Shown here in pieces: positions 16,953 to 30,281 of a stretch of DNA of 32,000 nt (the stretch's first letter is position 1; the number at the start of each line of letters is the position of its first letter). The position numbers were made by a program, and so were the translations under genes. The stretch spans positions 24,921-56,920 of the forward strand of contig CABMGU010000077.1 of the NCBI GenBank assembly GCA_902385765.1. The letters are read 5' to 3'. This DNA comes from an uncultured archaeon. Its GTDB lineage: Archaea; Nanobdellota; Nanobdellia; Woesearchaeales; ARS49. The notes beneath the pieces were generated by a model. It was not told where the DNA came from. It saw only the letters and a list, made by a program, of their open reading frames with translations, and did no database searches.

Positions 16953-17727
16953 GTCATTTTCGCTGGTAGTCTTGGCTTTGCTGCTTTTATCTCTGCAAAC
17001 TCTGGTATACGTCACTATGCAGGGCTACATTTACTTGGACATTCTTGGCAACCTGTTTATTTGTTCTATTTCCTTGTGCGCGATGGTTGCCTGCTGGATT
17101 CCTTATCGTAAATTGTCTAAGAACTTCCCGTTGGAAAAGAAAGGCTGGTTTTTTATTGCATTGGCAACGACCTTGTTCTTTTTGGGAGACATCGCTTGGG
17201 CTTTCTTTGAGGTTTTTTTGAAGATTCACGTTCCTGTCGGCTCTCTGTGTGATCTTTTCTGGAATCTTGCTTATTTTTCTTTGATGTACGGGCTTTGGTG
17301 TTTGATGTCCGTATTATTCTTTGAATCCCAAAACCGCAATAGAATCATATTATTCGCTTCATTCCTCATCGGCTGCGTGGTTCTCTTTTTCGACTTAAGA
17401 GTCCATTCGGCAAATCTGAGCTTTGTGGACTTTATTCAGCACCTTTATGTTTTTTATGACGTTATCATCCTCGGCATGATTTATCTCATTCTTATGCCAC
17501 TCTTAATGGCTCATAATCATCTTTTTATCACCTGGACTATTTTCGGTTCAGCCATTATTGCAAGAATTGTTTTTGATTTCATCTTTGCGCATATGAACGA
17601 TGCAGGGACTTTTTACACAGGTCACCCGCTTGACCTCGTTTACACATTTTCATACTTTTTGTTTGTCTTTGCTGCTTATGAGAAAGATAAATTAATAGGC
17701 ATAATTACAATGAGAGAAAAAGCATGA
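16945..17727 (+). CDS. Polytopic membrane protein, paralog 2 of 3
   Basis: Same conserved blocks as paralog 1. It overlaps the upstream gene by 8 nt and has an ATGA overlap with the downstream gene. Confidence 0.75.
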   Translation: MRKSFSLVVLALLLLSLQTLVYVTMQGYIYLDILGNLFICSISLCAMVACWIPYRKLSKNFPLEKKGWFFIALATTLFFLGDIAWAFFEVFLKIHVPVGSLCDLFWNLAYFSLMYGLWCLMSVLFFESQNRNRIILFASFLIGCVVLFFDLRVHSANLSFVDFIQHLYVFYDVIILGMIYLILMPLLMAHNHLFITWTIFGSAIIARIVFDFIFAHMNDAGTFYTGHPLDLVYTFSYFLFVFAAYEKDKLIGIITMREKA

Positions 17728-18182
17728 TTAAACTCATCGTAACCAAGAGCGAGAAGATGCAGGGCTTGTTTTTAAGCAGTGTTAAGAAGTTTAAGTCTTC
17801 AGGTGTTTGCGTTCTTGTTGCCAAGCCTTATTCTGCTGTAAAGAGTTCTTTGAAGAGTTCCCGTATTTTCTTTATTGATACTCTTGCCGAATCTAGTGAG
17901 GAGAATGTCATTCACGTTCCTCCGAGCAATCTAACTGCTTTGAGCATCGCGATTAACCAGGCTTTGCAGTCTTTGGAAGGCAAGAAGTTTTTGGCGTTCG
18001 ATTCATTCTCAACTTTGACTGTGCGCAATCCTCCTAAGGTTGTTTCTAAGTTTGCTTTGTTTTTGCTTGAGCGTATCCGTTCTTGGGATGTTGATACTGT
18101 GATTATTGTCTCAAAAGAAAGCACTGATGCTGAACTGCTCGCCATACTGAAGCAGTCTGTTGACAAGGTTGAGGAAAAGTAA
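17724..18182 (+). CDS. Small cytoplasmic alpha/beta protein, KaiC/RecA-like core without a P-loop (DUF835-like), copy 1
   Basis: The pattern GVCVLVAKPYS...IFFIDTL...NLTALSIAINQAL...FLAFDSFSTL...KFALFLLERIR...TVIIVSKES..ELLAILKQSVDKV resembles the degenerate KaiC-like DUF835 domain. No GxxxxGK(S/T) motif is present. Confidence 0.6.
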   Translation: MIKLIVTKSEKMQGLFLSSVKKFKSSGVCVLVAKPYSAVKSSLKSSRIFFIDTLAESSEENVIHVPPSNLTALSIAINQALQSLEGKKFLAFDSFSTLTVRNPPKVVSKFALFLLERIRSWDVDTVIIVSKESTDAELLAILKQSVDKVEEK

Positions 18183-18183
18183 T

Positions 18184-18960
18184 ATGCGCCGTTTGCTGGT
18201 GTTCTTTGCACTCGTTTTCTTTGTTTTGCAGCTCTTTTTTGTCGCGACTCAGCAGGCTAATCCTTCATTGGCGTTGGCAAGCAATATTTTGCAGGACCTC
18301 CTGGGCTTGTGCGCTGTTATCGGATTTTGGATTGTTTATGCAAAAGTTGAAAAAAGGTTTGATGAGGAAAAAAAGGGCTGGCTTTGCATCGCCCTTGCGT
18401 TTTCGCTGTTTTTCATTGCCGATGTTATCTGGACTGTTTTTGAGGCAATTCTGCACATCAATCCAATTGGTTCTGTTCCAGACTTTTTTTATCTTTTAGC
18501 ATACCTTGTCTTGATGTGGGGGATGTATTATTTCATATCCTCAATGTTTTTCCGGTCGCAGGCTCTTAACTGTGCTATTGGAGGATTGACTTTTATTATT
18601 GCAGGTCTTTTCTTTTACATGAATATTCTGCAAAACGTCCTGGTAAAAGTGTTTTCGTGGGCCTCGCTTATTCAGGAATCTTATGGCTTTTTTGATATTC
18701 TTCTTTTGGGGCTTGTGCTGATTTTGATAATCCCTCTCATTGTATCTCATAACCGCCTGCTGAGGTCCTGGCTGCTTTTTGGAATGGGCATTATTGCTTT
18801 GGCAGTCTTTGATTTGGCTTTTTCAGAATTTGCTGTTCGGGGAATGTATTATTCCGGTCATCCTATTGACATTGTGTATTGTCTTGCGTATCTGCTGTTC
18901 GTTTTTGCCGCATATTATAAGCTTAAACTTTTGAAAAATGATAACCCTCATAATCACTAA
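18184..18960 (+). CDS. Polytopic membrane protein, paralog 3 of 3
   Basis: Starts at MRRLLVFF, 1 nt after the upstream stop. Conserved blocks are EEKKGWLCIALA, YYSGHPIDIVY and LLFVFAAYYKLKL. Confidence 0.75.
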   Translation: MRRLLVFFALVFFVLQLFFVATQQANPSLALASNILQDLLGLCAVIGFWIVYAKVEKRFDEEKKGWLCIALAFSLFFIADVIWTVFEAILHINPIGSVPDFFYLLAYLVLMWGMYYFISSMFFRSQALNCAIGGLTFIIAGLFFYMNILQNVLVKVFSWASLIQESYGFFDILLLGLVLILIIPLIVSHNRLLRSWLLFGMGIIALAVFDLAFSEFAVRGMYYSGHPIDIVYCLAYLLFVFAAYYKLKLLKNDNPHNH

Positions 18961-19411
18961 AAGCGAGAAAGTGCAGGAAGCGTTCCTGAATAGTGTGAAG
19001 AAGCTTAGAACTCAGGGTGTCTGCGTTCTTTTGGTTAAGTCTTACTCTGCAATCGCTGGTTTGCTTGCAAAAAATAGCGTAAAGACCTCTAATTTTTTGT
19101 TTATTGACACACTTTCTTCCTCAGAATTGGATAATGTGATTTATGTTCCTCAGGAGGATTTGACTGGTTTGAGCATCTCTATCAGCGCGGCTTTGCAGTC
19201 TTTGCCTGAGAAGGCAGCTCTGGTTTTTGATTCCTTTTCTACCCTGTCAATAAAGCACGATTCAAAAGTCGTGGCTAAATTTGCCCGTTTCTTGTCCCAA
19301 CGCCTGCATTATTGGAAGACAGAAGCGGTCATTATTGTTGCAAAGGAGAGCACTGACCCTGAACTGCTCGCTGTCCTGAAGCAGTCTGTTGACAAGGTCG
19401 AGGAAAAGTAA
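18938..19411 (+). CDS. DUF835-like small cytoplasmic protein, copy 2
   Basis: Collinear with 17724..18182 (MITLIITKSEK versus MIKLIVTKSEK). In the last 21 aa, 19 are identical (ESTDPELLAVLKQSVDKVEEK). It overlaps the upstream TM gene by 23 nt. Confidence 0.6.
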   Translation: MITLIITKSEKVQEAFLNSVKKLRTQGVCVLLVKSYSAIAGLLAKNSVKTSNFLFIDTLSSSELDNVIYVPQEDLTGLSISISAALQSLPEKAALVFDSFSTLSIKHDSKVVAKFARFLSQRLHYWKTEAVIIVAKESTDPELLAVLKQSVDKVEEK

Positions 19412-20579: not shown

Positions 20580-21741
20580 TTTTGAACTTTTGCAGTTCCT
20601 GTTTAAGCTCTTCTTTTATTTCTATGTCGCTCGGTATTGTCAGTTTTGCTATCGTTTTTTCCAGCTGTTCTATGTCAGTATTTGCTCTCTTTATGTCTTC
20701 TGCATACTGCGTATATTCTTTCATTATTGGTCTTTCTGCTACATCTCCTTGTATGTCTGCCTCTCTTTTCTTGGCTTTCGCGTATCTGTGTATCATTGTG
20801 CTGAGTCTTTCTTTTGTGAGTTGTTTTATTGCGTCAAGTGCTTTTTGCGTTTTTTCTGGCTTAAGCTCCAGTTCTCCGCCTGTTATTGCTTTTGCAAGGT
20901 CGTCTTTGTGTTTGAGTATTGCCAATGAGTAGTCTTTTATCAGTGTTTGAAGCGGGTTTTCGGCGTATTTTGCTATTTTCTCGTTTTTTATCTTGTGGGC
21001 GTATTTTTTTATCGCGTCTGATAGTGCCAGGAATAGTCCTGTTATGTCTTGTTCTGCTTCCTGTCTTTCTTTTGCTGAGGTTATTATGTCCTCTTTTACC
21101 TGCACATACTCCGGTCTCTTGTTGAATTCCTCTTTTTCTTTTTTTAGTGTGTCTCTTTTGTTTATCAGCTGTTGCAGTTGTGTCTGGAATTCTGCCTGCT
21201 GTTTTTCTATTGTTTCTTTTTCGTTTTTGGTGTCGTCTATCTTTTGTATGAGGTTTGTTATTTTCTGCATTTCCTCTTTTTGTGCCTGTATTTTCTTGAT
21301 ATTGACTATTTTTTCCTCAATCGAAGCCATCGCTCCTCTCAGTTCTTTTACTTCATCTCCTATGAATTCTGTGAGGATTGCGGCCGGTCTTGCCACGTTT
21401 TGCGCGTATTGATGGAATAACAAGTCGATTTGGCTGATGTCAGTGCTGTCTTTTGGTATGAAGATGTTTTCAACGAATTTGCTTGTCAGCCTGATGAACT
21501 GTTCCCTGTTGCCCTGCATGAAGTGTTTTGCTCTTTCAGGTATGTTTGGGTTTCTTAGTTCTGCTTTTTCCAGTTTGAAAACTGCTTGTTTTACTCCGAT
21601 TAGAAGTTCTGGCAGTGCTTGTTGTCCTGCTTTTATGGCTTCTTGTTGTTCTTTTTCCAGTTTTTCCTGTTCTTCATTCAGCCAGCCGCGTACTTCTTCC
21701 AGGCTTTTCTTTTTAAAGAACAGTTTTCTGAACCACTCCAT
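20563..21741 (-). CDS. Coiled-coil protein of unknown function, 392 aa
   Basis: Starts at MEWFRKLFFKKK, behind a GAGGA SD. It has long K/E/Q-rich heptad-like stretches. It is convergent with pgk and overlaps it by 17 nt. Confidence 0.65.
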   Translation of the reverse strand: MEWFRKLFFKKKSLEEVRGWLNEEQEKLEKEQQEAIKAGQQALPELLIGVKQAVFKLEKAELRNPNIPERAKHFMQGNREQFIRLTSKFVENIFIPKDSTDISQIDLLFHQYAQNVARPAAILTEFIGDEVKELRGAMASIEEKIVNIKKIQAQKEEMQKITNLIQKIDDTKNEKETIEKQQAEFQTQLQQLINKRDTLKKEKEEFNKRPEYVQVKEDIITSAKERQEAEQDITGLFLALSDAIKKYAHKIKNEKIAKYAENPLQTLIKDYSLAILKHKDDLAKAITGGELELKPEKTQKALDAIKQLTKERLSTMIHRYAKAKKREADIQGDVAERPIMKEYTQYAEDIKRANTDIEQLEKTIAKLTIPSDIEIKEELKQELQKFKIILTL

Positions 21742-21759
21742 TTGATTATTTCCTCGTTT

Positions 21760-21842
21760 CGCCGCGGTCAAAGACTGACTTTCTTTCTCCCCTTGCAAAG
21801 CGCGGGGAGAAGAAAGTCACTTGGGCAAGCCCAAGCGCGGCG
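21760..21842 (+). repeat. Four-way-junction (cloverleaf-like) structured element, copy A
   Basis: Outer stem cgccgcg/cgcggcg. Hairpin 1 is gtc-aaa-gac. The long hairpin is (t)gactttctttctcccc / ggggagaagaaagtc(a), with one bulged T and loop ttgcaaagcgc. Hairpin 3 is cttggg-caag-cccaag. An oligo-T run (21852-21857) follows. Confidence 0.6.
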
Positions 21843-21868
21843 TGATATTTGCTTTTTTCGACCAAATG

Positions 21869-21876
21869 TTTATATA
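21869..21876. promoter_or_regulatory. Candidate palindromic TATA box between the coiled-coil gene and rnp4
   Basis: TTTATATA lies about 45 nt upstream of the rnp4 ATG (21918). In the opposite sense it could start a transcript that includes element A as the 5' leader of the minus-strand gene. Confidence 0.3.
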
Positions 21877-21917
21877 GTTTTATCCTCTACAGTATCGATG
21901 TGAAGCAAAAGGCACCT

Positions 21918-27274: not shown

Positions 27275-27282
27275 TTTTGAAG

Positions 27283-27355
27283 CGCCCCCGGTGAGACTCG
27301 AACTCACGACCCACTGATTAACAGTCAGTTACTCTACCGGCTGAGCTACGGGGGC
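27283..27355 (-). tRNA. tRNA-Asn (anticodon GTT)
   Basis: The minus-strand sequence is GCCCCCG TA GCTC AGCCGGTA GAGT A ACTGA CTGTTAA TCAGT GGGTC GTGAG TTCGAGT CTCAC CGGGGGC G. This is a 73-nt canonical cloverleaf with a TTCGAGT T-loop. CCA is not encoded. Confidence 0.95.
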
Positions 27356-27370
27356 TTAAGAATTGCTCAC

Positions 27371-28009
27371 TTAGAAGGCATTTAAATATGTTTTGCTTGC
27401 CGTATGAAGCTGAATGAGGTTTCTTTTGTTTGAGGAACCGATGACCGAACGCCACAATGTCAGGTTTTTAAATCCCGCCACTTCTAAGCGGTAATTGTCT
27501 GCATTTCGGGATACGGAACCGGTAAACCCGTGATTTTTTAAAAGCAACATTACGGAGTTGAGAAATGAGTAGTTTTTGCTTTTGATTTCAATTCTGGGAT
27601 AATATGCTTGCGTTCTGTGTTGTTTTGATAATATAACGCATCCGTCTGTATCAAATAGACCCCTGACAAAAGCTAATTGCCTGCATTTTGACTTTAATAC
27701 AAAATCGGGAATTTTGAGTAGAGAATATTTTTTGCCGACGGGAATCTCTAATTCTTGAAATCTTTTAAACATCTCTTTATCACTGAATTTTATGAAGATG
27801 GTGTTTTCATCTTTTCTTTTATGAGAATTTACCAGTTTTCCAAAAACTTTGTAAAAAAGATTTGGCACATACCTCTCCATGTAATCATCATCTTTTAGGC
27901 TGTTGCCTGAACAGTAAATGTAATATTTTACTTGGGACTTTGAGCTGGACAGGCATCCGTCTCCGCACATTATTCCTAGAAGTTCAGCCAGAGCCTGGTC
28001 TTTTTTCAT
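27371..28009 (-). mobile_element. Free-standing double-motif LAGLIDADG homing endonuclease gene
   Basis: The two LAGLIDADG motifs are LAELLGIMCGDGCL and LAFVRGLFDTDGCV. The protein is 212 aa. The gene ends 15 nt upstream of tRNA-Asn on the same strand. Confidence 0.85.
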
Positions 28010-30041: not shown

Positions 30042-30072
30042 CTCTTTCTTGATGGGATTATTGGAAATTGGT

Positions 30073-30080
30073 ATTTAAGT
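30073..30080. promoter_or_regulatory. Candidate TATA-like box ATTTAAGT (left copy)
   Basis: It lies about 32-39 nt upstream of the minus-strand ATG at 30041. Read on the plus strand, it lies about 28 nt upstream of the outer stem of element B. The identical 8-mer recurs at 30241-30248. Confidence 0.3.
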
Positions 30081-30083
30081 GTT

Positions 30084-30207
30084 TTGGCGTAGTGAGCTCT
30101 ATGCCAAATTTCGCTGCTCTGGTCCTACGGACTGAATTATCTCTCCCCTTAGCTATGCGTGGGGAGAGATAATTCACCTCGCTTAAGCCGAGGCAGAGCG
30201 GTGAAAT
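30084..30207 (+). ncRNA. Structured element copy B: a 9-bp hairpin followed by a four-way-junction (cloverleaf-like) fold; candidate novel ncRNA or DNA structural repeat
   Basis: The leading hairpin is ttggcgtag-tgagct-ctatgccaa (30084-30107). The 14-bp outer stem pairs 30108-30121 with 30194-30207. Inner hairpins are gtcc-tac-ggac, (t)gaattatctctcccc-ttagctatgcgt-ggggagagataattc(a), and cctcg-cttaagc-cgagg. The three non-Watson-Crick pairs are all G-T as read on the plus strand. Confidence 0.6.
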
Positions 30208-30240
30208 GTGTGTCTTGGGATTGTATTGGCAGAGCAAAGC

Positions 30241-30248
30241 ATTTAAGT
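30241..30248 (+). promoter_or_regulatory. Candidate TATA-like box ATTTAAGT (right copy) for the protease gene
   Basis: It lies about 41 nt upstream of the ATG at 30282. Confidence 0.3.
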
Positions 30249-30281
30249 AGTGAATATTTCCTAGTAGTGGAAAAAGAGACT

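Follow-up and report, generated by a model that had tools for sequence, protein, structure and literature searches.

The structured element in the spacer between the cohesin-domain gene and the subtilase gene of the window (the whole stretch of 32,000 nt that was analysed), here called copy B, is a 137-bp insertion between two divergent genes, with a 5-bp target duplication (TSD), TTGGC. It probably belongs to a family of dispersed, MITE-like insertions that are small, non-coding and non-autonomous and occur in DPANN archaea of the Woesearchaeota type. What defines this family is not any conserved terminal sequence but a conserved core of nested inverted repeats, whose outer stem and three hairpins fold, on either strand, to a fully paired four-way junction. 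The genomes of DPANN archaea are tiny and tightly packed, and their mobile DNA is poorly known. The family shows that core chromosomal regions in these organisms accept small insertions, beside rpp21, PGK and ABC-transporter operons, and such insertions can give a leaderless gene a leader, or separate overlapping genes while supplying a new start signal.

The original prediction described, within a 240-nt spacer between a cohesin-like gene and a protease gene (the subtilase), an outer stem enclosing three hairpins. Both the spacer and the gene pair were confirmed, and RNAfold reproduced the outer stem and hairpins H1, H2 and H3 exactly where they had been placed (Table 1). It had also proposed that the single T at 30133 and A at 30176 could pair, and they do: H2 is a perfect 16-bp stem (arms 30133–30148 and 30161–30176), and the junction holds three enclosed hairpins and zero unpaired bases. 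The 12-nt loop of H2 contains a mini-helix and is in what is here termed the 'group 1' orientation. As a whole, the inserted unit is composed of a 19-nt 5' flank (GTAGTGAGCTCTATGCCAA), the four-way junction at 30108–30207 and an 18-nt 3' flank (GTGTGTCTTGGGATTGTA), and no further copies of the two flanks were found. A 9-bp hairpin abutting the outer stem had been counted as part of the structure. It is indeed present at 30084–30107, but it consists of the left TSD paired with the unit's own ...CTATGCCAA, spans the TSD and the first 19 nt of the insert, and lies outside the conserved element.

Table 1. Positions of copies A and B, their parts and the predicted promoter elements near copy B, in window coordinates.
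Feature	Position	Strand	Basis
Predicted TATA box, cohesin-domain gene (CACTTAAATAC)	30069..30079	-	Outside insert; conserved in empty L157, L162 and L163
TSD, left copy (TTGGC)	30084..30088	+	Single TTGGC in empty L162/L163 with near-identical flanks; blastn break at 30088
Copy B inserted unit, 137 bp	30089..30225	+	Filled/empty site comparison; ssDNA z -9.9
Outer stem, 5' strand, 14 bp (subterminal inverted repeat)	30108..30121	+	RNA and ssDNA folds
H1, GTCC-TAC-GGAC	30122..30132	+	Fold and family alignment; stem sequence conserved, loop variable
H2, 16-bp pyrimidine/purine stem, TGA...CTCCCC / GGGGAG...TCA	30133..30176	+	100% complementary
H3, CCTCG-CTTAAGC-CGAGG	30177..30193	+	Fold; 4/5 pairs covary
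Outer stem, 3' strand	30194..30207	+	Fold, family covariation
TSD, right copy (TTGGC)	30226..30230	+	Empty-site comparison, blastn, duplication search
Predicted TATA box, subtilase gene (CATTTAAGTA)	30241..30250	+	Outside insert; conserved in empty sites
Probable copy A inserted unit, 94 bp	21752..21845	+	TATTT at 21747-21751 and 21846-21850 (TSD); empty relatives
Copy A four-way junction	21760..21842	+	7-bp outer stem, H1, H2 with one bulged T, H3; covariance model score 76.6 bits

The plus strand of 30084–30207 has a minimum free energy of -70.6 kcal/mol by RNAfold, compared with -35.0 ± 3.4 kcal/mol for dinucleotide shuffles (z -10.6), and none of 200 shuffles folded as well. The minus strand folds too (-57.0, z -7.4), and the whole inserted unit, taken as single-stranded DNA with DNA parameters, is similarly far from its shuffled controls (z -9.9). 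Short hairpins are common in AT-rich spacers and, as a prior, this would speak for a chance palindrome or an assembly artefact, but the probability of either is practically nil given the z-scores of copy B and of copy A (-6.6), the two matches in the window to the H2 motif CTCCCC-N-GGGGAG where a pattern search would expect none, and the presence of independent, covarying members in at least eight metagenomes and MAGs. Chance and artefact are already refuted by the folding, H2 pattern, covariance model and covariation results.

Syntenic loci of relatives were fetched via the flanking proteins, and in every relative examined the element was absent from the sites orthologous to A and B. Site B is empty in L162 and L163, which share 78–87% DNA identity with the window, and also in L157 and L159. 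In the first two the spacer is 99 nt long, matches the window nearly base for base on both sides and contains one TTGGC, the empty site reading ...CTCTGCCAA|AACACTTAAAT... on the cohesin-gene strand. The window has the same flanks with 142 extra bases between them (TTGGC, 137 bp, TTGGC; 30084–30230), and blastn alignments of the site break at 30088 and 30222. At the empty sites only about 17 bp separate the two divergent TATA-like boxes (their putative promoter role was judged from the archaeal BRE/TATA consensus), and the insertion point of copy B falls between them. From archaeal promoter geometry, copy B would therefore lie outside both predicted transcription units. It probably has no function for the cell and appears to be a neutral passenger.

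An independent insertion could be compared with its empty site at a pair of permease genes. In L170 and L171 (92% and 87% protein identity) the 11-nt overlap of the two genes (GTGCTGACTGA) is intact, and in L143/L129 a 142-bp unit splits this stop/start overlap, with a 10-bp duplication, TGCTGACTGA, on either side. The downstream permease receives AGGAGG, together with the A of a new ATG, from the 3' flank of the L129 unit, and its start changes from GTG to ATG. L143 has a second copy, inverted and truncated, upstream of the same permease gene, and the two members, in inverted orientation, bracket this ABC-transporter permease gene (L143 1–1420; L129 1–190; L170 4970–5040; L171 11175–11245).

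When checked against empty sites, the length of the target duplication is thus 5 bp for copy B and 10 bp for L129, and candidate duplications of 5–7 bp, approximately symmetric about the outer stem, were seen in five of six further candidates (L130, L150, L151, L091 and L123). Such duplications are what a staggered cut would be expected to leave. Members occur in divergent, tandem, convergent and intra-operon contexts, and their orientation relative to the genes is not fixed. The insertions leave the neighbouring genes intact, and in three cases they place a Shine-Dalgarno (SD)-like motif before a start codon.

A second copy with the same topology had been reported at 21760–21842, and folding bears this out. 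Copies A and B are 62% identical, keep 32 of the 34 model pairs and differ by fully compensatory changes at nine pairs. Comparison with relatives indicates that copy A is a second, diverged insertion, situated between a predicted TATA box and the start codon of a gene for a coiled-coil protein, although its boundaries are less certain than those of copy B as there is no very close relative to compare. In seven relatives the rpp21/coiled-coil spacer is 53 nt long and lacks the element, compared with 119 nt in the window, and exactly 14 nt separate CATTTGGT from the coiled-coil ATG. This ATG lies at 21741–21739 on the minus strand of the window, and the 5' end of the copy A unit, CCTCGTTT, reads as GAGG on that strand, 11 nt upstream. 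The coiled-coil gene would gain a leader of about 105 nt, with the minus-strand junction inside it and GAGG-N11-ATG at its end, and transcription of copy A would be confined to the minus strand, in the form of this leader. In relatives (L156, L158, L159, L164-L167; window 21742–21899), a single motif, AATAAAACTATATAAACATTTGGT, is highly conserved and common to rpp21 and the coiled-coil gene; it looks like one bidirectional promoter for two leaderless genes. On the element's minus strand, copy A (21752–21759) and L059 (2918–2942) also have a flank in common, AAACGAGGAAATA, and each time this flank stands 2–5 nt before the ATG of an unrelated gene, so that this subfamily carries an outward-facing SD-like motif.

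Examples such as these could mean that the element is a cis-acting regulatory or insulating element, co-opted by the host and kept for that role after insertion, whether as a structured 5' leader, as an intercistronic element that brings a Shine-Dalgarno, or as a spacer or insulator between divergent promoters. The apparently leaderless gene that acquires a long leader and GAGG at site A (14 nt from motif to ATG in the seven relatives), the same flank before an ATG in L059, and the AGGAGG and new start codon at L129 can all be read in this way, and a BRE/TATA-like motif follows the element at a distance of 26–41 nt in about 10 of 14 members. Co-option is nevertheless quite improbable as an account of the family. 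The SD-bearing flanks lie outside the conserved core and differ between copies, the contexts include convergent gene ends and variable orientations, copy B is outside both predicted transcription units, and relatives do without any element at these sites. The observed pattern would be explained equally well by selection against harmful insertions.

Other members of the family were collected by pattern and by covariance model. The first pattern, GACTGA..CTCCCC..GGGGAG, was derived from A and B and proved too loose for genome contigs, where it gave about 118 chance bacterial matches and only two real ones, L059 and L091, both in the MAG CAYUHB01; with a tighter pattern, about 12 distinct members were recovered from metagenome contigs. 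A covariance model (R1) was built from relatives. It recovers 15 members of full length and one truncated copy, and the members score 66–93 bits. The model, run with filters off, found no third copy in the window, and it gave no further match in 743 kb of control loci; no members were found in the viral contigs searched. Building such a model and examining covariation had been suggested along with the original prediction, and this has now yielded about 13 distinct members beyond A and B, all on contigs of, or syntenic with, Woesearchaeota (DPANN) genomes. In the model-guided alignment of 15 members, 92.7% of pair cells are paired, as against 43–55% when the partners are slid, and both sides have changed in 17 of 34 pairs, an extent of covariation reached by none of 500 shuffles. 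In the outer stem both sides have changed in eight of the nine modelled pairs.

The members have a common plan: an outer stem of variable length, with up to 16 bp uninterrupted; H1, GGTC(C)-loop-(G)GAC; H2, TGA-N5-7-TCTCCCC / GGGGAGA-N6-TCA, with a loop of 10–14 nt that itself forms a mini-helix of 2–4 bp; and H3, CC...GG. The inserted units are 94–146 bp long and contain no ORF. There are two copies in the 32-kb window, and two (L059 and L091) in the contigs of CAYUHB01, a MAG that also holds the empty site L162; near-identical sibling copies were not seen in the window or in the fragments of related genomes. Peripheral parts of the fold tolerate expansion, as L134 (~1150–1296) has about 50 structured nucleotides within the H1 loop, with the 5' outer strand and the 5' arm of H1 shifted upstream, and L154 (472–573) has an H3 of doubled length. 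A weak and divergent relative in L142 (1249–1341) and L155 (725–817), at 20.5 bits (E 0.018), shares H1 and H2 with the family but differs in its 3' part, and may be a degraded copy or a separate subfamily.

The window itself encodes the archaeal core genes FtsZ, Spt5, L11, Elp3, GAPDH, PGK, Rpp21 and CarS. Homologues of the coiled-coil protein beside copy A are annotated as Candidatus Woesearchaeota, one of them on an 875-kb contig, Ga0247727_10000001, that carries the family member L136, and the permease beside L143/L129 likewise has Woesearchaeota homologues. The MAG CAYUHB01 (GCA_964444355.1; L059, L091 and L162) is titled 'uncultured Methanosarcinales archaeon', yet its locus L162 is syntenic with the window at 78–87% DNA identity; either the label is wrong or the bin is mixed. 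Several other features of the window were noted. A free-standing LAGLIDADG endonuclease ORF (27371–28009, minus strand), within neither an intron nor an intein, is situated directly upstream of tRNA-Asn (27282–27355) and on the same strand. Two small paralogous ORFs with DUF7504/KaiC-like matches (17724–18182 and 18938–19411) are found about 750 bp apart, upstream of PGK. The plus strand of the window has a strongly negative AT skew (T >> A, to -0.40) and a GC skew that is positive throughout, both largely regardless of gene strand.

The original prediction favoured a plus-strand RNA, on the grounds that the non-canonical pairs of copy B are G-T on that strand. The asymmetry holds for copy B but is weak across the family, where 18 G-U pairs occur on the plus strand and 10 on the minus strand, and so the argument does not generalise. 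In 11 of 15 members the plus strand has a slight advantage in stability, the energies of the two strands mostly differing by less than 2 kcal/mol. Relative to H1 and H3, H2 can point either way, with one orientation in four of the aligned members and the other in eleven. The loop form TTGC..GCGY is carried by A, B, L059 and L123, as well as by the truncated second copy of L143 (5 of 16 copies), and the remaining 11 aligned members have the opposite, 3'-A-ended loop, most of them near the reverse complement, RCGC..GCAA. The loop of L130 is exactly what the L059 loop reads on the opposite strand, the single bulge of H2 switches arm between the orientations, and both orientations have been found within one MAG. 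The flipping of H2 is an inversion at the DNA level across a perfect inverted repeat.

Against a dedicated plus-strand RNA gene stand the unconserved termini, the two orientations of H2, the weak strand bias, the variety of contexts and orientations relative to genes, the lack of a promoter (no BRE/TATA-like motif was found within the inserted units) and the lack of positional conservation, the orthologous sites being empty. Three options had originally been put forward for the element, and they fare differently. That of a mobile repeat is upheld by the empty sites and the target duplication, that of a new ncRNA family is not supported, and that of a structured leader could apply to copy A, on the minus strand.

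It could still be supposed that the copies represent a functional family of structured small RNAs, cloverleaf or tRNA-shaped, which has become multi-copy by spreading through an RNA intermediate. This would be a SINE-like retroposition, carried out by a host reverse transcriptase or by one of a DGR or group II intron, with the junction as the RNA fold that functions or is recognised. A functional RNA would likewise covary strongly in all four helices, the greater stability of the plus strand is clear in copy B, the conserved part is internal and not terminal, and duplications of 5 and 10 bp together with unit-specific flanks would fit target-primed reverse transcription of read-through transcripts. 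Against this, the units are without a promoter and copy B lies between divergent promoters, a sequence-specific RNA loop should not tolerate the inversion seen in H2, the G-U bias is weak, the 3' tail is neither A-rich nor conserved, and no reverse transcriptase is encoded in the window or adjoining members. Nor is there any similarity to Rfam families or to tRNA, in agreement with the original prediction, which had recognised no known RNA family. Across the whole window the only match to Rfam 15 at the gathering threshold is tRNA-Asn (27283–27355), permissive scans of the two spacers gave at best miRNA-hairpin models (14–20 bits, with cut-offs of 68–99 bits), ARAGORN detected no tRNA at A or B, and no description of a four-way-junction RNA or repeat in these archaea was found in the literature. 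An RNA family is, on this evidence, unlikely. Covariation in a DNA palindrome can arise without selection, via templated correction between the arms (quasipalindrome mutagenesis), and for this reason the covariation seen here does not settle the choice between RNA and DNA. There is a caution in this for the discovery of ncRNAs, as strong folding and covariation can stem from a palindromic mobile element.

If the element is, as seems probable, a MITE-like insertion, then its folded core, whether as single-stranded DNA, as a cruciform or as RNA, could be the cis signal for a trans-acting factor that would make a staggered cut of variable length. Pairing might then be kept partly by the requirement for recognition and partly by palindrome-templated mutation, with which the flipping of H2 is consistent, and the only insertions to persist would be harmless ones, or ones whose flanks by chance provide a ribosome-binding site. 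Should the fold be the signal for mobility, the mechanism would be an unusual one. No genes for a transposase, integrase or reverse transcriptase were found in the window or adjoining any member (fetched loci and gene tables), and no left-flank target motif is shared among members. No conserved termini were found among the units of A, B, L129, L130, L150 and L151. A and B have different ends although they lie in the same genome, and this does not fit a classical transposase, which would bind terminal inverted repeats. Two further points weigh against the MITE-like reading. The length of the target duplication varies (5 and 10 bp), and A and B are so diverged from one another, whereas active MITEs usually have near-identical siblings. 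The copies are old and diverged yet keep their pairing, which is odd for a MITE. A bolder and rather unlikely interpretation is that the family represents a new class of archaeal mobile element, in which the cis signal is the fully paired four-way junction (of the shape of a Holliday junction or tRNA) and not a terminal sequence. Such an element would be moved by a structure-recognising enzyme or by a reverse transcriptase, with staggered cuts of variable length, and its variable flanks could serve as portable ribosome-binding sites in the compact operons of DPANN genomes.

Several known systems were compared with the family, and some could be set aside. A tRNA with an intron or BHB motif was rejected as there are no bulges, an integron attC site as there are no R or L boxes and no cassette array, a replication origin ORB as the copies are scattered, and an operator palindrome as the half-sites covary rather than match a consensus. 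The four-helix cloverleaf is like that of a tRNA, and in many members the outer stem is about 7–9 bp, but the junction linkers and the signatures of the D-, anticodon- and T-loops are lacking and the central arm is 16 bp. As for SINEs, the variable length of the duplications (5 and 10 bp in the two verified cases) is a SINE-like feature, and no promoter motif in the units or conserved 3' tail was found.

Two systems resemble the element in the arrangement of its hairpins. The inverted terminal repeats of parvoviruses and AAV (flip/flop T-shaped hairpins) also have an outer stem that encloses small palindromes, and an internal palindrome that exists in two orientations; they are, however, the termini of linear ssDNA viruses and their whole interior flips, whereas the element lies within a chromosome and H2 alone flips. 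The double-hairpin elements and GC clusters of fungal mitochondria are short and mobile, with a conserved multi-hairpin fold and a variable primary sequence; their insertions are in spacers, and changes that preserve pairing are tolerated. They belong to another domain of life and another type of genome, and have two hairpins instead of an enclosed four-way junction, and no sequence relationship between them and the element is known.

The closest parallels are prokaryotic MITEs and repeats defined by their structure, namely REP/REPIN, PATEs and the mitochondrial double-hairpin elements. Like the MITEs of bacteria and archaea (Correia/NEMIS, ERIC and RUP, and those of Sulfolobus and haloarchaea), the element is small (94–146 bp), non-coding, intergenic and an imperfect palindrome, it has target duplications, is present or absent at orthologous sites, occurs in several copies per genome, and can supply expression signals to neighbouring genes. 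A census has reported a very high density of MITEs in a Woesearchaeal genome, among the most MITE-dense archaea (PMC11602168). Unlike MITEs, it is an internal, branched core that is conserved and not terminal inverted repeats, in copy B the inverted repeat is set back from the ends by 19 and 18 nt, no parent or cognate IS was found, the duplications vary in length, and the copies are diverged with compensatory changes and not near-identical. By analogy, the element may resemble in its recognition the REP/REPIN sequences (RAYT) and the IS200/IS605-derived PATEs (HUH), where a folded hairpin is recognised in place of a double-stranded terminal sequence, and as in those systems its structure is subterminal and its copies are dispersed and intergenic. 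REP/REPIN–RAYT systems and PATEs, however, have no TSD and insert beside a fixed tetra- or pentanucleotide, whereas the element has 5- and 10-bp TSDs and no conserved target; no gene for a RAYT, TnpA or HUH (Y1) transposase was found in the window or the fetched loci. The family is thus neither fully a MITE nor fully a REP/PATE, as it lacks conserved terminal repeats and yet duplicates its target.
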